A stretch of DNA of 7,583 nucleotides from Promethearchaeota archaeon (GTDB taxonomy: Archaea > Asgardarchaeota > Thorarchaeia > Thorarchaeales > Thorarchaeaceae). Position 1 is the stretch's first letter. Each line of letters begins with the position of its first letter. The DNA lies in contig JALVPN010000014.1 of the NCBI GenBank assembly GCA_027031765.1, forward strand, positions 1 through 7,583, written 5' to 3'. The position numbers were made by a program, and so were the translations under genes. The notes beneath the pieces are model-generated. The model searched no databases. It was not told where the DNA came from and saw only the letters and a program-made list of their open reading frames with translations. Shown here piece after piece: positions 1 to 7,583 of the stretch.

Positions 1-93
1 GGGGTGAGGCCTACAGGTTGTGTCCTCCCGCTGGCAGTGCGTGAGATGACTGTTCAGGGGCACATGGTGGATGTGGGGCGTGCGTAGTGCTGT

Positions 94-528
94 TCATACC
101 AGGACCCATGCCAGGAGGAACCAGTAGGCCCCGAGGAGGAGTGCAACAGTCCAGAGGCCGATGGTGGCGAACATGAGCTTTCTGGTCTTGCGGAGCAGGC
201 GGAGGGGGAGTCCCCGGTTCAAGAGGAAGAGCACAACCAGGGAGGTGCCCATGGCGAGCGCAAGTGTGCCCACTGTGTCGTGTGCGAGCTGGTACCAGTT
301 CACGAGGGGGCTGCTGAGGGCGAGCCCTATGCGTTCGAATGCTCTTGGGACCATCCACAGGGACACGATGATGAGGTGGACTGCGATGACTGTGTTCACA
401 GCCCAGTGGTGGGTCTTGAACTCCATCCTCCTGGACCCGAGCAGCCAGCCTGTAAGGAGGACTGCTGCGGTTACCACTTCGCTCACCAGTACGATGAGGG
501 AGAAGGGGACTCCCACGGACTCCTGCAC
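94..528 (-). CDS. Small 4-TM membrane protein, DUF420/cytochrome b561-like (possible heme b binding)
   Basis: 144 aa with four hydrophobic segments. His at H40/H41 (RRMEFKTHHW, start of TM2), H51 and H83 (YQLAHDTVG, TM3). GTG start at 528 with GGAGG 9 nt upstream; TGA stop. The gene is well supported; the family call is by resemblance only. Confidence 0.7.
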   Translation of the reverse strand: MQESVGVPFSLIVLVSEVVTAAVLLTGWLLGSRRMEFKTHHWAVNTVIAVHLIIVSLWMVPRAFERIGLALSSPLVNWYQLAHDTVGTLALAMGTSLVVLFLLNRGLPLRLLRKTRKLMFATIGLWTVALLLGAYWFLLAWVLV

Positions 529-537
529 TGCACTTGG

Positions 538-544
538 CCTCCTC
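538..544 (-). promoter_or_regulatory. Shine-Dalgarno-like site GAGGAGG for the 94..528 gene
   Basis: The minus strand reads TAA-GAGGAGG-CCAAGTGCA-GTG. The motif lies directly after the stop of the upstream gene and 9 nt before the GTG at 528, which suggests co-transcription. Confidence 0.65.
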
Positions 545-1264
545 TTACATCCTGATTGTTGTCACACTGCCCCTGGTGGTGAACGTGCTCTTGTCTGGGG
601 AGGCTGCCCGCTGTCTATGTGCAGCGACGATTGCCGCACCGATCATCCCCCACGGGCAGAACCTTACCTCAAGGTTTCGATATGCCTCCGAGTCATGGAT
701 TTCCGAAAAAGCGCAGCCATTGACCGCGACTGTGACCTCGTCCTGACGGACTTTCACGCGGGAATACGTGACGAACCCGCGCCTCCTCAGGTATTCTGCA
801 AGACCCCTGAGCTTCTGGTCCAGTGGCACATCCGGGTCCAGGAGCTGCTCGGGCAGGTATGCCACAAGGATGTCAGCCATTCGGGTGAACACGTAGTCCT
901 TGATGGCTGCGTCTCCAAGCACCTCGATGAACGCACTCTCGTAGCCGAAGATGGCCGCTCTCAGTTTCCAGACCTCTTCAGTGGTCAGGTCGCGAGTTGT
1001 ACCCTGCCTGTAGGCGTCCTCCACTCTCACCTTGAACTCGTCAATGAACTCCTTCAGCTGCTTGGTCAGGTCAGCCTCACCTGACAGACTTGAGAACACC
1101 TCCGGGAGAAACTCGCGAACATAGTGCACCATCTTTGGCAGCACGTGTCTGTCAAACATGTCGGGCCCGATGAGTTCCTTTCCCACCGACTCGTAGGCCT
1201 CAAGGATACCCATGTAGAGGAAGACTGCTGCGAGTTCTTCTCGGGACACGTCTCCGTGACTCAT
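545..1264 (-). CDS. V4R-like (V4R/MetOD1/Bet3-type fold) protein with a duplicated N-terminal helical module
   Basis: ATG at 1264 (MSHGDV...) is preferred over the GTG at 1285; TAA stop. The C-terminal part (helix, G, beta-hairpin, VNGCAF..IH...FCPWG..GAAIV, terminal strands) matches the layout of V4R-type domains. Cys codons at 713-715 and 656-658, His at 695-697. Confidence 0.65.
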   Translation of the reverse strand: MSHGDVSREELAAVFLYMGILEAYESVGKELIGPDMFDRHVLPKMVHYVREFLPEVFSSLSGEADLTKQLKEFIDEFKVRVEDAYRQGTTRDLTTEEVWKLRAAIFGYESAFIEVLGDAAIKDYVFTRMADILVAYLPEQLLDPDVPLDQKLRGLAEYLRRRGFVTYSRVKVRQDEVTVAVNGCAFSEIHDSEAYRNLEVRFCPWGMIGAAIVAAHRQRAASPDKSTFTTRGSVTTIRM

Positions 1265-1307
1265 AGAGGACGGGACCCCCAGCACAGGAGTGCATCCGTG
1301 CCGCCCC

Positions 1308-1317
1308 TATAATATAT
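1308..1317 (-). promoter_or_regulatory. Candidate archaeal TATA box for the V4R-like gene
   Basis: An AT-only island (minus strand ATATATTATA) in GC-rich DNA, about 45-55 nt upstream of ATG 1264. Confidence 0.45.
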
Positions 1318-1375
1318 TGTGGGTCAGACATATTGTGGGTCAGGTGCATCTGAGATACGGTGCACTGTGGGTCAG
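1314..1375. repeat. Direct repeat ATATTGTGGGTCAG x2 plus a third TGTGGGTCAG core
   Basis: Exact 14-mers at 1314-1327 and 1330-1343. The 10-bp core occurs at 1318, 1334 and 1366 (spacings of 16 and 32). Confidence 0.85.
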
Positions 1376-2412
1376 GTATGTCTCAGGAGTCGCACAACAT
1401 AGCCGCTGTCCTGAGACTCGATGGCGACCTGATGAGGCACCTCACCTGGCACCACCGACACGAAGCTGTCCAGAGACCTCCGCGACAGCGACTTGGCAAG
1501 GTTCTCAAGGTTCTTGATCAGCGTGGACAGGAATACGTTGAGGCGGGTGATGAGCCTCTGCTCCCCCATCGAGAACCTTGGCCCGCTAGCTCCGACAATA
1601 CGGCCCGTGTTGTCTAGGCGCAGCACCCCGATCACCTCGCCGTCCTCTAGGGAGTGCTGCGGGCGCTGGGTTGCTCCCCCTCCACAGAGCCGCCTTGCCG
1701 CCTCAAAGACATCGGCCTGCGGAGTCGTGAGCGGACCAACGCTCACACCCACTACCGGACTGCAGTTCACTACTGCCACGGTGTAGTCCTTTACATTCAT
1801 GACGAAGCTCTCATACTCGTCCAGGATCCCCAGTGTCCTGAGACACCCAAGAAGGGATGCATGGACAAGGGCTGCGTCCCCTACCATATCCTTCTTGAAC
1901 AGTGGCCTGGGCCTTGAGAAGCTTGCAATCAGCTCCCCGTCTGGTACGCGGAACGCAAAACCCACGACCACCTTGCCCTCTTCTGCAATCCGTGCGATCT
2001 CCTCCTTGACCACTGCTTCCGGAGTGAACAGGGCCGCATTTATCCTGTCAATCTGTCTGCTCAGTCCCTCTTTTGACTCAGGGGAGAGCTGCTGGCCCCC
2101 TTTGGGGAACTGGACTCCCCCGACGACTTCCAGTATCCTCGACATCGCCTCACTGGCGTACTCCCTTGGTGCGGAACGCGCGAAGACGCCCACGAGGACC
2201 CGGTCGTCGGTTGGACAGCGAGCGTACAGGAAGTACTCGTTCTCTGTGAAGAACGACTGGAGTGCGTCCGCCCGTGTGTGGATGCTGAAGTCTTGGATTG
2301 CTGACAGCAGCCCGCCTGACAGCACCGCCCTGTCATCGTCCGCCATGGCTCTGTCAGCAGTGTAGTGGAAGAGGAGTATCCCTGAGTCCAGGACAAAAAC
2401 TTCCTTGAGCAT
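1372..2412 (-). CDS. Longin-domain protein with two further roadblock/longin-like domains
   Basis: 346 aa, ATG to TGA. The N-terminus (VFVLDSGILLFHY...D..VLSGGLLSAIQDFS...LQSF..EN..FLY...VLVGVF..helix) fits the Asgard-type longin pattern (beta-beta-alpha-beta-beta-beta-alpha). Two more similar units follow at aa ~131-243 and ~258-346. Confidence 0.7.
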   Translation of the reverse strand: MLKEVFVLDSGILLFHYTADRAMADDDRAVLSGGLLSAIQDFSIHTRADALQSFFTENEYFLYARCPTDDRVLVGVFARSAPREYASEAMSRILEVVGGVQFPKGGQQLSPESKEGLSRQIDRINAALFTPEAVVKEEIARIAEEGKVVVGFAFRVPDGELIASFSRPRPLFKKDMVGDAALVHASLLGCLRTLGILDEYESFVMNVKDYTVAVVNCSPVVGVSVGPLTTPQADVFEAARRLCGGGATQRPQHSLEDGEVIGVLRLDNTGRIVGASGPRFSMGEQRLITRLNVFLSTLIKNLENLAKSLSRRSLDSFVSVVPGEVPHQVAIESQDSGYVVRLLRHT

Positions 2413-2437
2413 CTCGTCAGAGTATCAGGGTCCGTTC

Positions 2438-2444
2438 CTTTAAG
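2438..2444 (-). promoter_or_regulatory. Candidate TATA box (minus strand CTTAAAG) for a leaderless longin-gene transcript
   Basis: TTAAAG lies 26-31 nt upstream of ATG 2412, the usual archaeal leaderless spacing. No SD motif precedes that ATG. Confidence 0.55.
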
Positions 2445-2497
2445 CCTTGTTGTCCTCAACGGGAAGAAAGATTAGGACATGGCACGTTGACGCATGC

Positions 2498-3070
2498 ATG
2501 AGCCCTAGGTCTGCTGAGAGACATTCCGCTCACATAGTGTTCCTGTTCCTGGTTGTTGGACTGGCCCTGTTGCCCCCTGCTGCCCAGGCCCACACCCCCG
2601 AGTCCGTCACATTGGAATACGACTTTGACGACCAAGTACTCACTGTGCACGTCACACATCCGGTCTCTGACCCTACCACTCACTACATAGCGCGCATTGT
2701 GGTCGAGAAGAATGGCCAACAGGTGGCCAGCCGTGACTACACGAGTCAAGAGAGTTCCAGTGGCATGTCAGACACCTTCAACGTCCCAGCTGAGGACAGC
2801 GACGTGCTGAGAGCAACGGCCTTCTGCAGCATATCTGGCCAATCGTCTGCAGAGATAACGGTGCACGCACCAACAAGCACCACTACAACAACTACAGGTA
2901 CCACCACCACCACATCCACCAGCACTACGACCACAACAACAACTATGACGACGACCAACACGACCGTGACCCCCGCTCCCGGCCCCTCCGTGGAGTTGCT
3001 CCTTGTCGGGTCGGCTGCTGTGGCCGTGGTACTCGTCATTGCCGTACTGGTCCTGAGAACACGGCGCTGA
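2498..3070 (+). CDS. Exported, C-terminally membrane-anchored protein with a superoxide reductase/desulfoferrodoxin-like metal-binding pattern and a Thr-rich stalk
   Basis: ATG at 2498 gives a 31-aa signal peptide ending AQA|H. The mature domain reads HTP...THPVSDPTTHYI...ATAFCSISG, followed by a Thr-rich linker, a hydrophobic helix and a basic tail LRTRR; TGA stop. Confidence 0.75.
   Translation: MSPRSAERHSAHIVFLFLVVGLALLPPAAQAHTPESVTLEYDFDDQVLTVHVTHPVSDPTTHYIARIVVEKNGQQVASRDYTSQESSSGMSDTFNVPAEDSDVLRATAFCSISGQSSAEITVHAPTSTTTTTTGTTTTTSTSTTTTTTTMTTTNTTVTPAPGPSVELLLVGSAAVAVVLVIAVLVLRTRR
2873..2971 (+). repeat. Low-complexity Thr/Ser-rich coding linker
   Basis: 33 codons (TSTTTTTTGTTTTTSTSTTTTTTTMTTTNTTVT) using mixed ACA/ACC/ACT/ACG codons, so it is not a pure microsatellite. 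It contains an N-T-T sequon. Confidence 0.9.
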
Positions 3071-3187
3071 ACGGCACTCAGGAGGGTAGACGGAAGCGAC
3101 TGCTTGGGCGTACCGGTCAGGTGTGCGCCGCTGTCTGAGGGGCGACGATACCCGTCACGGTCTGAGGCCACAGCCTGACAGATCTGG

Positions 3188-3215
3188 TGGTCGGATGGTC
3201 GGCTGGTCGGCTGGT
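3188..3215. repeat. 8-bp tandem repeat (TGGTCGGM) x3.5
   Basis: tggtcgga-tggtcggc-tggtcggc-tggt, in the gap between convergent genes. Confidence 0.7.
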
Positions 3216-3245
3216 ACGTTACTCGGAGTGTGGGAGGTGTGGCCC

Positions 3246-5444
3246 TCACCAGCCTGCAGTTGTACCAGCGGCCGGCAGCCAGAGCCTGAACTCTGCGCCT
3301 TGGCTGTAGTCACCTGGCACCCTGTCACGTGCCTCGATGCGTCCGCCGTACTTGTCGACTATCTGTCTTGACTGGTGCAGGCCCAGACCGCCATAACGCC
3401 TGCTCATGAGGAACAGGTCGGCCTTCCGCGCATCTGGTATTCCGGGGCCGTTGTCAGCCACCGACAACACGTAGCCCTTGTCCTCGTACCACACGCGTAC
3501 CCAGACCTTCTTGTCGTCCCGTGGGTTGTGCTCCACTGCGTTCACAAGGATATTGGTCACCAGGAGCTCGAGGTACTCGTCAGCCACGACCGTTGCTGTC
3601 TGTACGTCGAACTCTGTCACGAACTCCACGCCTGTGGTCCTTGATTCGAGCGCGGCCACGCATGAGCGGACGGCATCTAGCAGTGGTCGCTCCTTGAGCT
3701 GCGCAGCTGTCAGGTGCTCGATGTCCTTTGCTTCCTCAATCAGCCTAGCACACCGCTGCACCGACTCCTCGACCACCTTGAACAGGGACTCCTGGAGCGA
3801 CTCGTCGGTGGCGCCCCTCAGGAGCGAGGCACTGATCTGAATGACCTGCAGCTGGTTCCTGATGTCGTGGCCCAGCAGGTCGAGGTAGAGCATTGCCTGG
3901 TCACGGATCCGGTGGGCCCGCATCTCTGCACGCCGCCTCTCCGTGGTGTCGATGAACACCATCTGTACTGCCTGCTGCCCACCATAGTCTGTGGCCGTGG
4001 CGAACGTGTCGACCCACCTGACCGTGCCGGCACTGTGGATGACCCTGTACTCGCCCCTCATGGTGACCCGTTTCCCGGCAAGTGCCCCCAGCACTCCGGA
4101 CCTGATGGCCGCTCTGTCCTCCTCATGGAACAGCGCCCAGACCTCATCCATGGACATCTCCACGAGCTCGTCCCGTGAACGTCCGACAATGTGTGCCAGC
4201 GCCCTGTTGACGTATGCAAAGCCGTGTTCGTCGATGATTGCAAGTCCCTGTAGTGACTTCTCCGCAAGGGCGCGGTACCTCATCTCCGACCTTATAATGG
4301 CCTCCTCAGCCCTCTTCCTTTCTGTGATGTCTATCATTGCCACCTGCAGGGCCCTGCGCCCCTCGTACTCCAGCGTACTGGCAAATGCGTCGACCCACCG
4401 GATCTCACCGTCCTTGCGCACGATCCTGTGCTCCACACGCCCCATCACGGTCTGGTTGTCGAGGGTCTTCTTCTGAGCACGCTCGACTCGCGGGAGGTCG
4501 TCAGGGTGCACCAGGGACCATATTGTGCCGGTGTCGAGTGTCATCAGCTCCTCGACGTCATAGCCTGTTATCTCAGCGAGCGCTCTGTTCGCGAAGACGA
4601 CCCTGCCGTCCTGAATGATTGCAAGCCCCTGCAACGACTCCTCTATGAGGTTCCTGTACTTCTGTTCACTCCTCTTCAGCGCCTCTTGGGCCCTCACCAT
4701 GTTGCTCATGTCCACTACGACACCAGAGAACCCGGTGGGCACGCCGTCCTGGTCGCAGACAACTGCGATGCTCATCTGTGCAGGGAACTCCGTGCCATCA
4801 CGTCGGATGAGCGTCAGCCGTCTGTTCCGTACGACACCCTCTCTGAGGGCCAGCTGCATCATCTCCTGGACAGCTGGTCGGCTCTCGGGGCTCACGAGCT
4901 TGAGGATGTCCTTTCCGACGAGCTCGTCGGACTCCTCTCCGCCGTACTGTACAACCCCTTGTCTGTTCACCATGACGATTGTGCCCTCGACATCCGTCAG
5001 AAAGACGACAAAGGGCGAGGCCTCGATGAGGCGGCTGTAGCGCTCCCTGCTCGCTCTCAGGGCCATCTCGACCTCCCGGTAGTGCGTGATGTCCGTCACA
5101 ACCGCTACTGAGCCGACCTGCTCCCCGTCCTCGAACAGTGGTGTCCCTGATACTTTTGTGTACACAGTATGCCCGTCTCTGGCCACCCAGCACAGGTCGT
5201 ACTCGGTCGTCCTGCCAGCAGCACGCGCACGCAGGTTCTCTACCAGTACTTCCCTGCTGTCCTGACGGAGGAACTCCTTGGCGTCACGCCCTATCATCTC
5301 GTCGGGTGTGTAGCCCAGCATCTCAGCCATCCTGTGGTTGACGTACTCCATCGTCGCGTCGCGAGTGGCAAGCACCAACCCCTCCGTCATTGTTTCGACA
5401 ATGATCCGGTACAGGTCGGGCTCTTGGTCTGGGTCGAGCTTCAT
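3246..5444 (-). CDS. Cytoplasmic sensor histidine kinase, 4 x PAS/PAC + HisKA + HATPase_c
   Basis: ATG at 5444 (MKLDPD...), 732 aa; the longer GTG start at 5615 adds sequence that does not look protein-like. Four PAS units start near 5411, 5039, 4658 and 4277. H-box DLLGHDIRNQL (His codon 3867-3869), N-box NILVNAVEHN, G1 VADNGPGIP, short lid and G2 YGGLGL. No TM segment. Confidence 0.93.
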   Translation of the reverse strand: MKLDPDQEPDLYRIIVETMTEGLVLATRDATMEYVNHRMAEMLGYTPDEMIGRDAKEFLRQDSREVLVENLRARAAGRTTEYDLCWVARDGHTVYTKVSGTPLFEDGEQVGSVAVVTDITHYREVEMALRASRERYSRLIEASPFVVFLTDVEGTIVMVNRQGVVQYGGEESDELVGKDILKLVSPESRPAVQEMMQLALREGVVRNRRLTLIRRDGTEFPAQMSIAVVCDQDGVPTGFSGVVVDMSNMVRAQEALKRSEQKYRNLIEESLQGLAIIQDGRVVFANRALAEITGYDVEELMTLDTGTIWSLVHPDDLPRVERAQKKTLDNQTVMGRVEHRIVRKDGEIRWVDAFASTLEYEGRRALQVAMIDITERKRAEEAIIRSEMRYRALAEKSLQGLAIIDEHGFAYVNRALAHIVGRSRDELVEMSMDEVWALFHEEDRAAIRSGVLGALAGKRVTMRGEYRVIHSAGTVRWVDTFATATDYGGQQAVQMVFIDTTERRRAEMRAHRIRDQAMLYLDLLGHDIRNQLQVIQISASLLRGATDESLQESLFKVVEESVQRCARLIEEAKDIEHLTAAQLKERPLLDAVRSCVAALESRTTGVEFVTEFDVQTATVVADEYLELLVTNILVNAVEHNPRDDKKVWVRVWYEDKGYVLSVADNGPGIPDARKADLFLMSRRYGGLGLHQSRQIVDKYGGRIEARDRVPGDYSQGAEFRLWLPAAGTTAGW

Positions 5445-5493
5445 AATGTGTGCCCTTCTACGCGCATGGTATAGCACTCTTGTGGCCCTGCTG

Positions 5494-5500
5494 ATATTAA
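5494..5500. promoter_or_regulatory. Possible TATA-like element ATATTAA in the kinase/pseudogene divergent gap
   Basis: The most TATA-like AT-rich stretch in the gap, about 50-56 nt upstream of ATG 5444. Confidence 0.3.
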
Positions 5501-5711
5501 CTCTACTGTCCGTTTCCGTGGGCCTGCTGGTCAAAACCGTCCCGGGCAGAACGACACGATCCCCCCAGCTGGAGATGTCGGCCTGCACCCCCACGTGACC
5601 CTCCACAAGACCCACAGTCTACGTCTCGTGCTGCCCCTTCATCAGGCCCGTAGCATCAATACGACTGCAGCCGCTTTCCGATGGCCTGCTGCGTTGCAAG
5701 GTGGGTCTCAC

Positions 5712-6810
5712 ATGTCCTCCGGACACTGGGACTGGACCGGTAACGTGGTGGCACGGCACCCGCTCCTCGCCCTGGATAGGGGAACAATCTATGACCGGGT
5801 AGAGCGCACACGGTACTCCCACCGCACACTGGACGCAGGGCCGGACAGGACAGCCCATCTCCTTGCGTGCCTAGGAGTTGGCCGGGGCAACAGAGTAGCG
5901 GCCCTGTCAAAGAACCGTATCGACCGTATTGATGCATACCTGGGCGCCTCGAAGCCGGGTGCCGTGCTCGTGCCGCTGAACGCACATCTGGCCAACGTGA
6001 ACTGGAGCACGTGTCGAGAAGGCCTGGCCCAGAGTGTTGCTCTTCGACCCGCTCAGGGGTCAGAGTTTGACTTGCCGTACTCGGAGGTCTCGGGACACGA
6101 TGGTCCTGTCATGGGCGAGCACGATGTGCGCGACCACCACGTCACGCGTGCAGTGATACGCGACCAGCCGGCCTCGCCACCCGAACGCCCCATCATCTCC
6201 TTTGACGACCCGGAGCTCGTCCTGTTCATCAGTGACACGACAGGCGTCGCCAAAGGGGCAGTGCTCTCGCACAGACTCGTGTCCTAGAACGAGGTGGACA
6301 CGGTCCTGTAGTGGGGCCTACGTCCCGATGACGTCCAGCCGCTGCCCTTCCCACTGTTCCACACTACGGGTTGGAATGCCCTCACCCTGCCCTTCATCCA
6401 CCTGGGTGCGAAGACCGTGCTGATGGGTAACTTCGACCCCGAAGACTGCTTGCGGGTCGTCCCGTCCGAGAGGTGCACCACTGTGGTGGATGTGCCAACG
6501 ACGTTCCTCATGGTATCCCAGTCGGCGTCGTTCGCCAGGACCGGCCTCTCCTCCGTCCGGACGTTCGTCAGTGACGGCGCCCATGTCCCGTCTCGATCAT
6601 GGGAACGTACTGGGCCTGGGGGAAAGGCCTTCAAGATGGACTACGGCCTCACCGGGGTGAGCCCCAACAACTCCTACCGGCCGGAGGCCGACACCCGCAG
6701 GAAGCCCATATCCGTCGGCCTTCCAGTCCTCCACTGTGACCCTCGCGTCGTCGGTGATGACGTGGAGGAGCTGACAGAGTGCGGCCAGCAAGATACTGAG
6801 ACGCAAGCTT
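5712..6810 (+). pseudogene. Degraded long-chain acyl-CoA synthetase / AMP-binding (ANL, FadD/MenE-like) gene
   Basis: Decayed motifs are recognisable: RGNRVAALSKN, GAVLVPLN, FISDTTGVAKGAVLSH (from YTSGTTGxPKG), PLFHTTGWN, DYGLTG (from GYGLTE), SVGLP, and SKILRRKL (from GKILRR). In-frame TAG at 6285-6287 and 6309-6311, frameshifts at about 5995-6055, and the C-terminal block is missing. The end coordinate is approximate. Confidence 0.88.
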
Positions 6811-7030
6811 GGACGACCGTGCTTTCCGCCCTGTCGGTGCGCGTTGCCCCGGACCCGTGGTCGGAGCGTCTGGACATGCAGCCCCGGGGAGTACTACCCC
6901 GGAGTCGTGGCCGGGTCTGTGCGACCCGTAGTTCTGCCCCGGGGGCTGTCGACTGTGCTGTGGGCCCCGGACAACATTCATATCGTCTCGATACCTCTCT
7001 TCCACAGGTCCTGGGCCCGACAGTAGGTAG

Positions 7031-7045
7031 AGTCAGTCAGTCAGT
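7031..7045. repeat. Tetranucleotide microsatellite (AGTC)x3.75
   Basis: agtcagtcagtcagt in non-coding DNA. Confidence 0.6.
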
Positions 7046-7187
7046 AGCCGTGGGCGCGCATTGGACTCCGCGTGGGCAACAGCCCAGGAGAGTGTGCATA
7101 TCTGCTGGGTGGTGCTGACCGCACGTATGGGGCTGCTGCAAGACACGCGGGAATGGACACTGTACGTGGTCGGTGGTGACCGCTGCT

Positions 7188-7583
7188 ATGTCAGAGAGGG
7201 AGCTACGGAAGTTCTCATCAGACCTTGAGGGTGCGGAGAACACGGCCCGCATCCGCCTGTTCGGCAAGGCGCGTCGGAAGTACGAGGAGCTGGCCAAGAC
7301 TGCCAGAGAACTAAAGCCAGACATGGTGTCAGAACTGGTGTTCCTCTCACACTTCTATGCGCTGGCAGACGACATTGCCCGACGCCGGGACCCACACAAG
7401 ACCGGGTCACTGGACAGACTGCTCGCCCTAGAGGACTCGATGCCTGACACAAAGGTCACGTTGGTACTGCCGGATGGCTGGTTCGGGGAGTGTTCTACCA
7501 AACGCATCCTGGACGAGCTGCGTGGTGTGCGCCTGATGTACCTCGGGCTGCAGGGGCGCCGTCCGGAGTCTATCCCCCAGGCC
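7188..7583 (+). CDS. Hypothetical protein, 3'-truncated by the window edge; helical N-terminus
   Basis: ATG at 7188 is open for 132 codons to the end of the window: MSERELRKFSSDLEGAENTARIRLFGKARRKYEELAKTARELKPDMVSELVFLSHFYALADDIARRRDPHKTGSLDRLLALEDSMPDTKVTLVLPDGWFGECSTKRILDELRGVRLMYLGLQGRRPESIPQA. The composition is protein-like. It is absent from the ORF track, presumably because it has no stop codon in the window. Confidence 0.75.
   Translation, partial: MSERELRKFSSDLEGAENTARIRLFGKARRKYEELAKTARELKPDMVSELVFLSHFYALADDIARRRDPHKTGSLDRLLALEDSMPDTKVTLVLPDGWFGECSTKRILDELRGVRLMYLGLQGRRPESIPQA

Follow-up and report, generated by a model that had tools for sequence, protein, structure and literature searches.

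Whether a longin gene lying directly beside a V4R-fold gene in an Asgard archaeon records a primitive TRAPP-like assembly, or a different use of the same protein folds, is the question raised by a stretch of 7,583 nucleotides from a Promethearchaeota archaeon of the family Thorarchaeaceae (the window; contig JALVPN010000014.1 of assembly GCA_027031765.1, positions 1 to 7,583 of the forward strand). A first-pass annotation, made from the sequence alone, had described two co-oriented genes 107 bp apart, here termed A and B, and had suggested that their products may form a TRAPP-like or GTPase-regulating complex. Both genes do lie on the minus strand, and a spacer of exactly that length separates the stop codon of A (1372-1374) from the ATG of B (1262-1264). 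The pair was found to belong to a three-gene cassette (A-B-C), confined to Asgard archaea, that is conserved across seven Asgard lineages and in which a predicted three-domain longin protein stands beside a predicted H-NOX/V4R/Bet3-superfold protein and a membrane protein. The cassette shares building blocks with TRAPP and with the tri-longin Rab guanine nucleotide exchange factors (GEFs) and is an orthologue of neither.

The features of the cassette, with predicted domains, are as follows (aa, amino acids).

Gene A, 1372-2412, minus strand: 346-aa longin-roadblock-lamtor type protein (open reading frame (ORF), homologues, AlphaFold2 model)
Domain 1 of A, 2029-2412, minus strand: canonical longin (DSSP, structural matches, invariant columns)
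Domain 2 of A, 1672-2028, minus strand (aa 129-247): roadblock (structural matches, alignment)
Domain 3 of A, 1375-1665, minus strand: lamtor type (DSSP)
A-B spacer, 1265-1371, minus strand: 107 bp
Gene B, 545-1264, minus strand: 239 aa from the ATG, H-NOX/V4R/Bet3-superfold protein (ORF, homologues, AlphaFold2 model)
N-terminal helical module of B, 989-1264, minus strand (aa 1-92): tandem copy of the core's helical hairpin
Core of B, 548-988, minus strand (aa 93-239): two helices and an alpha/beta module of Bet3/V4R type
Gene C, 94-528, minus strand: 144-aa four-helix membrane protein, divergent DUF420/CtaM-like

Conservation of the cassette among Asgard archaea

Judged by their reading frames and relatives, A and B are real genes. 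Gene A has 22 full-length homologues (33-43% identity) and gene B, for which an alternative GTG start lies at 1285, has 154 (48-63% identity), in both cases exclusively in Asgard metagenome-assembled genomes. Neither A nor B matched any Pfam or NCBIfam family, and the window copy of C likewise returned nothing meaningful. A scan with a pattern derived from the B alignment, taking one genome per GTDB species, yielded 36 loci spanning Thor-, Prometh(Loki)-, Hermod-, Frey-, Hod-, Heimdall- and Kariarchaeota, with neighbour families called by hidden Markov model scans of six-frame ORFs. An A-family ORF was located immediately upstream of B on the same strand at every one of the 36 loci, and the A-B-C gene order was kept in 36, 35 and 33 of the 36 loci. 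Among 201 evenly sampled Asgard genomes full-length B was present in 18 (approximately 9%), all of which also carried A; the two genes were adjacent in 17 of these, with the remaining genome having them at two contig ends. The adjacency of A and B is far beyond chance. The first-pass annotation had named a lack of conserved adjacency as counting against its proposal, and the adjacency is strictly conserved. Within the family of the host itself the cassette was present in 14 of 44 genomes.

The first-pass annotation was right about the A-B adjacency and missed the third member, gene C, which lies directly 3′ of B, in the same orientation, at 33 of the 36 loci, the three loci without a regular C comprising one contig edge, one decayed copy and one inverted copy. 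The gap between B and C varies from -1 to 27 nt with a median of 15 nt, and that between A and B has a median of 66 nt over the same loci, with an insertion of approximately 790 bp in one lineage (L019/G008), such that the coupling to B is tighter for C than for A. When all neighbouring ORFs were clustered only A, B and C were conserved throughout. A fourth gene of approximately 120 aa with weak zinc-ribbon hits joins the cassette in 17 loci (e.g. L003:7246-7602), being 3′ of C in 14 and 5′ of A in three; the window ends too early to include this position.

Two individual loci may be recorded here. The complete Thorarchaeota chromosome CP070658.1 (L037) carries a decayed cassette in which B is truncated after approximately 155 aa and gene C is missing. 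On a Freyarchaeia chromosome (L001:8122-10382) genes for Sec23/24-like and dynactin-p25-like hexapeptide-repeat proteins lie 1.4-3.6 kb downstream of the cassette, neighbours that were not seen in the other lineages.

The spacer between A and B contains a TATA-like element at 1308-1317, approximately 48 nt before the ATG of B, in keeping with the earlier remark that the V4R gene seems to have its own TATA box, which would weaken the case for an operon. Comparable ATTTTAG/ATATAAG motifs recur 40-50 nt before the start of B in the A-B spacer of many other loci. On these motifs B-C probably has its own promoter, with or without read-through from A. In the window three exact direct repeats of CTGACCCACA are packed into 58 bp of the minus strand (1318-1327, 1334-1343 and 1366-1375), with the third overlapping the stop codon of A; in the last two copies the repeat lengthens to CTGACCCACAATAT, and these copies lie directly against the TATA-like element. 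These repeats may constitute an operator for a regulated internal promoter.

The predicted proteins

The AlphaFold2 model of A (predicted local distance difference test score (pLDDT) 83.9) was resolved by DSSP into three alpha/beta domains. Domain 1 is the most conserved part of the protein, with an acidic loop at aa 19-33 modelled at low confidence, and it is the canonical longin that the first-pass annotation had recognised, the best solved match being TRAPPC4/synbindin (2j3t_D, Z 13.3, root mean square deviation (rmsd) 2.6 over 115 aa) followed by VAMP7 (Z 12.3), LD1 of Fuzzy (11.4), Sec22b (11.4) and Trs23 (11.3). Domain 2 carries an invariant FSRPxPLF motif and matched Roadblock2 of MK-D1 (9jq8_B, Z 10.5, rmsd 2.1), MglB (Z 10.0) and LAMTOR (Z 9.7). 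Domain 3 gave a weak profile match to dynein LC7/roadblock (E 0.3), which was the sole hint from sequence-profile searches of the PDB with A and B, and domains 2 and 3 together aligned to tandem roadblock proteins in the Atlas (template modelling (TM) score 0.50-0.60 over 200-216 aa).

Tri-longin subunits are defined by a canonical longin domain (LD1), a roadblock-type domain (LD2) and a lamtor-type domain (LD3) (Gerondopoulos et al., PMC6864590). As modelled, A has the same longin-roadblock-lamtor order as the tri-longin Rab-GEF subunits. A Foldseek search of the PDB with full-length A returned Fuzzy, Inturned, Mon1, Ccz1 and HPS1/4 as the top 17 matches (E 1e-8 to 7e-6, 380-480 columns). With three domains and these full-length matches, A is not a single longin subunit of the TRAPP type. 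Global TM scores to the tri-longin proteins were 0.2-0.26, low values which indicate that the relative placement of the domains of A is unmatched to theirs. The likeness to Mon1-Ccz1, Fuzzy-Inturned (CPLANE) and HPS1-HPS4 (BLOC-3) resides in the domain order and in the best full-length matches, whereas A is much smaller at 346 aa, has no loop inserts, is single-copy and has no Pfam-level match. Moreover A has a V4R-fold protein and a membrane protein as its cassette partners, neither of which accompanies the eukaryotic subunits, and GEF activity of A would be a candidate function only. With a single A-family gene in the genome, any dimer of A would be a homodimer, there being no paralogue for a heterodimer. 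A longin of the GTPase-activating type, which has a GP motif as well as an arginine finger, as in FLCN/SMCR8 (PMC12290439), was also considered for A and dismissed, neither a GP nor an arginine being conserved in the beta1-beta2 loop.

In the model of B (pLDDT 83.7, predicted TM score 0.83) an alpha/beta module follows a helical N-terminal part, and the N-terminal and C-terminal parts of the protein were aligned to each other by hhalign (probability 79%, E 1.6e-5, aa 23-79 against aa 107-161). Structural matches were obtained to H-NOX (Z 7.3, aa 14-239), YslB (Z 6.3), Trs31 (3cue_B, Z 5.8, rmsd 3.7, 133 aa), Thor-TRAPPC3 (7YH2, Z 5.3), PoxR (5.1), DmpR (5.0) and the V4R protein MJ1460 (4.2) and also to BcsD, with residues 91-239 covering the matches to Trs31, Thor-TRAPPC3, PoxR and DmpR. 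The V4R fold assigned to B at first pass was thus recovered as the wider H-NOX/V4R/Bet3 superfold, with Trs31, Thor-TRAPPC3 and PoxR all among the matches. As the Z scores are modest and the Bet3-type and V4R-type matches are tied, B is placed in the superfold and is not assignable to TRAPP.

Other lines of evidence bear on the same point. The nearest shapes to B in the Atlas belong to prokaryotic RdxA_C, V4R/MetOD1 (TM 0.54/0.60) and DUF2507 clusters and not to eukaryotic TRAPP. A Pfam scan of B found neither the PF04051 nor the PF02830 signature, genome-wide scans gave matches on contig C41 alone for PF04051 and on contigs other than that of the window for PF02830, and a B profile to which the distant relatives had been added still gave no bridge to TRAPP or V4R. 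With the profile link absent and the nearest predicted shapes being of the prokaryotic V4R/MetOD1 type and RdxA_C, the view of B as a TRAPP-type subunit was not borne out. Its V4R/MetOD1-type neighbours lean toward a grouping with ordinary V4R/MetOD1 proteins, an outcome that the first-pass annotation had itself counted against its proposal.

A search of 1.84 billion representatives with the B profile gave 23 hits, the distant ones (P0154-P0164) being unannotated, lying on short contigs that show no gene context, and covering only the core (aa 90-239). Three residues, C184 (713-715), H190 (695-697) and C203 (656-658), are invariant in B and common to these remote relatives, and the Cys-His-Cys cluster they form is flanked by the second strand and the last long helix, at the place where zinc is bound in Thor-TRAPPC3 and PoxR (PMC10933270). 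The predicted fold and a putative metal-type Cys/His cluster between the sheet and the last long helix are what B has in common with Thor-TRAPPC3 (7YH2), PoxR, MopR, DmpR and H-NOX, in which the N-terminal helices are used for dimerisation; B differs from Thor-TRAPPC3 and the V4R proteins in having an extra copy of the hairpin, Cys-His-Cys instead of four Cys or Cys3-Glu, and no detectable profile similarity. The H-NOX haem motif Y-x-S-x-R is absent from the B sequence and from its invariant columns. In two of the distant relatives (P0155 and P0161) the B core is fused behind an N-terminal multi-pass membrane domain that has no detectable homology to gene C. Fused or longer forms of B were sought and none was found, which is weak evidence. 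The fused relatives of the core (P0155, P0161; G186:C176, G175:C49, G091:C60) are 270-360 aa long, have an uncharacterised membrane domain and come from another Asgard family.

An Atlas feature search with C pointed to DUF420, and the orthologue of C in a related genome (G001) matched PF04238 from model position 2 to 128 of 130 with 23.5 bits against a cut-off of 30.5. As this match runs end to end yet falls below the cut-off, C was termed divergent DUF420/CtaM-like. C resembles DUF420/CtaM proteins in its four transmembrane helices and similar length, and differs from them in the score below the cut-off and in its gene context. The invariant residues in the alignment are E17, R34, H40, H41, M59, H83 and M119, of which H40, H41 and M119 were read as facing the cytoplasm and M59 and H83 as facing outward. 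We know of no evidence that the Asgard hosts of the cassette employ such a DUF420-like protein for haem-copper oxidase assembly. The Bacillus DUF420 member CtaM has been proposed to have a copper export role in oxidase assembly (PMC13344008).

The window and the genome beyond the cassette

The genome has 27 Ras-family matches, none of which lies on the contig of the window, and the first-pass statement that the window holds no small GTPase gene stands. Genuine TRAPP and V4R genes, two matching PF04051 and one PF02830, are clustered on another contig (C41:24514-28642; L083 3015-7176), flanked by genes for helix-turn-helix proteins and without a longin gene, in a layout conserved within the family. 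Those genes would be the more plausible components of any TRAPP-like assembly in this organism. The first TRAPP match of this cluster contains an in-frame TAG.

The remaining genes of the window are of other kinds. Divergent from gene A, an ORF at 2447-3070 on the plus strand encodes a protein, secreted or at the surface, that combines a weak desulfoferrodoxin/SOR-like domain with a threonine-rich linker and a C-terminal membrane helix, and the same family occupies this position at 11 related loci. The minus-strand ORF at 3246-5615, two genes upstream of the cassette, encodes a histidine kinase of 789 aa containing four PAS domains and is not conserved alongside it. At 5595-7118 on the plus strand an AMP-binding gene of the acyl-CoA synthetase type is split, with Pfam model positions 17-185 in the ORF at 5595-6287 and positions 243-364 in that at 6417-7118; read from its two frames, it is a frameshifted pseudogene or an assembly error. 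The G+C content of the window is approximately 60% compared with 31-51% at the orthologous loci of other Asgard genomes, and the host is an unusually GC-rich lineage of the Thorarchaeota type. The sole public run containing the stretch is a DNA run labelled as hydrothermal-vent metagenome.

What the cassette may do

The strict co-occurrence and fixed order of A, B and C speak for joint action of the three, and the explanation favoured here, tentatively and with appreciable room for others, is that they constitute a membrane-anchored GTPase-platform or ligand-sensing module. The three proteins would associate as one membrane-attached unit, held at the membrane by C, with B binding a small ligand or metal, while A, probably as a dimer, would provide a longin/roadblock platform for one of the approximately 25 Ras-superfamily GTPases encoded elsewhere in the genome, which it might regulate. 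Ragulator-Rag and MglB-MglA offer a parallel as roadblock/lamtor platforms for GTPases tethered to membranes, and domain 2 of A matches MglB and LAMTOR with Z of approximately 10; by comparison the cassette has no fused or syntenic GTPase, its domains are in one chain and its tether would be an integral membrane protein. Complex prediction for A with B gave ipSAE values of 0.01 and 0.00, which were counted neither for nor against association.

A number of observations weigh against this explanation. The fold calls for A and B rest on predicted structures, and A together with 21 of its homologues gave no match to the Pfam families Fuz_longin_1-3, Mon1 and CCZ1 at E values up to 1, while PF19036 matches five other longin loci of the same genome and not gene A. 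When B was compared by hhalign with TRAPP and V4R profiles built from the genomes of its Thorarchaeota relatives the probabilities were 0.04% and 0.4%, respectively. A motif scan detected a small-GTPase-like ORF within 6 kb of the cassette at only one of the 36 loci. That transcription of B-C can occur independently of A is suggested by the conserved TATA-like motif in the A-B spacer. The cassette was not found in several relatives of 96-98% completeness, and such a patchy distribution marks it as accessory rather than core trafficking machinery, with the caution that its task may be narrower, in sensing or metal handling, rather than general trafficking. Longin and roadblock domains also serve roles unrelated to GTPases.

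The explanation put forward at first pass, in which a primitive Rab GEF of the TRAPP type would draw its longin subunit from A and its Bet3-like subunit from B, has in its favour the matches of A domain 1 to TRAPPC4 (best, Z 13.3) and Trs23 (close, 11.3), those of the B core to Trs31 and Thor-TRAPPC3, the strictly conserved adjacency and a reported longin-TRAPPC3 fusion in Heimdall archaea (PMC10933270), and the cassette does resemble the TRAPP core of longin (Bet5/Trs23/Trs20) and Bet3-family subunits in combining a longin domain with a Bet3-superfold protein. It is nonetheless highly improbable. The hhalign comparison that left B unrelated to Thor TRAPP recovered the link between the Thor TRAPP and V4R families with a probability of 96%; the genuine PF04051 genes are located elsewhere, without a longin gene beside them; A matches tri-longin subunits over its full length; and the Z scores of its longin domain to TRAPPC4, VAMP7, Fuzzy and Sec22b fall within about 2 units, so that TRAPP is not singled out. 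The Atlas neighbours of B, being of the prokaryotic V4R/MetOD1 type, point the same way. The cassette departs from the TRAPP core in that B falls outside PF04051, A is built of three domains, each type is represented by a single gene where TRAPP has several paralogues, and a membrane subunit is included. That A is a unit on its own and B-C a bicistron, adjacent through shared regulation or history and forming no complex, would account for an A-B spacer that is long (median 66 nt, 107 here) next to the 15 nt between B and C, for the TATA-like motif conserved within it and for the insertion of approximately 790 bp tolerated in one lineage. Against this, the co-occurrence of A and B is complete (18 of 18 genomes), with order and strand identical even though B has diverged to 38-53% identity, and as such persistence usually reflects a functional link this arrangement is considered improbable.

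Less remote, though still unlikely, is a role in metal or cofactor handling, in which B and C would form a cytosol-to-membrane module for the delivery or sensing of copper, zinc or possibly haem, with A serving as an adaptor that has no GTPase client. B and C are the tightest pair of the cassette (gaps of -1 to 27 nt) and have their own TATA-like element; C is related to DUF420, a family in which CtaM has the proposed part in copper export (PMC13344008), and displays His/Met pairs on both membrane faces together with a mid-membrane Glu; the fold family of B binds zinc, haem or hydrophobic ligands; and in the Freyarchaeia locus the cassette has a copper P-type ATPase nearby. The DUF420 match of C is, however, below threshold, the zinc in Thor-TRAPPC3 and PoxR is structural and not trafficked (PMC10933270), the haem motif is absent from B, the metal-related neighbours are lineage-specific and the strictly co-occurring A is left without a role. 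A membrane-anchored GTPase-platform or ligand-sensing module continues to be the preferred, if tentative, explanation for the cassette.

Roadblock, longin and TRAPPC3 proteins of Asgard archaea have been described together with the Heimdall longin-TRAPPC3 fusion in a study that does not include the cassette (Tran et al., PMC10933270). In the literature searched, which did not extend to subscription journals, no report was found that links tri-longin or Mon1/Ccz1-type proteins to Asgard archaea or describes the cassette. A more far-reaching and distinctly unlikely possibility is that in the cassette an archaeal relative survives of the single progenitor from which Mon1, Ccz1, Fuzzy, Inturned and HPS1/4 have been proposed to derive, with homodimeric A, the Bet3-fold protein B and an integral membrane anchor together promoting nucleotide exchange on a Rab/Arf-like GTPase of the Asgard host. 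If true, the longin-plus-Bet3 logic of TRAPP and the logic of the Rab7-type tri-longin GEFs would already have come together before the rise of eukaryotes.

Tri-longin Rab GEFs and TRAPP are regarded as eukaryotic inventions assembled from older longin, roadblock and Bet3/V4R parts. The cassette presents parts of the longin, roadblock and Bet3/V4R type as already wired together with a membrane partner, and in a gene order that is fixed, in several Asgard lineages, and with three named proteins and approximately 25 GTPases of the same genome to set beside them, the origin of these regulators of membrane traffic becomes directly testable.

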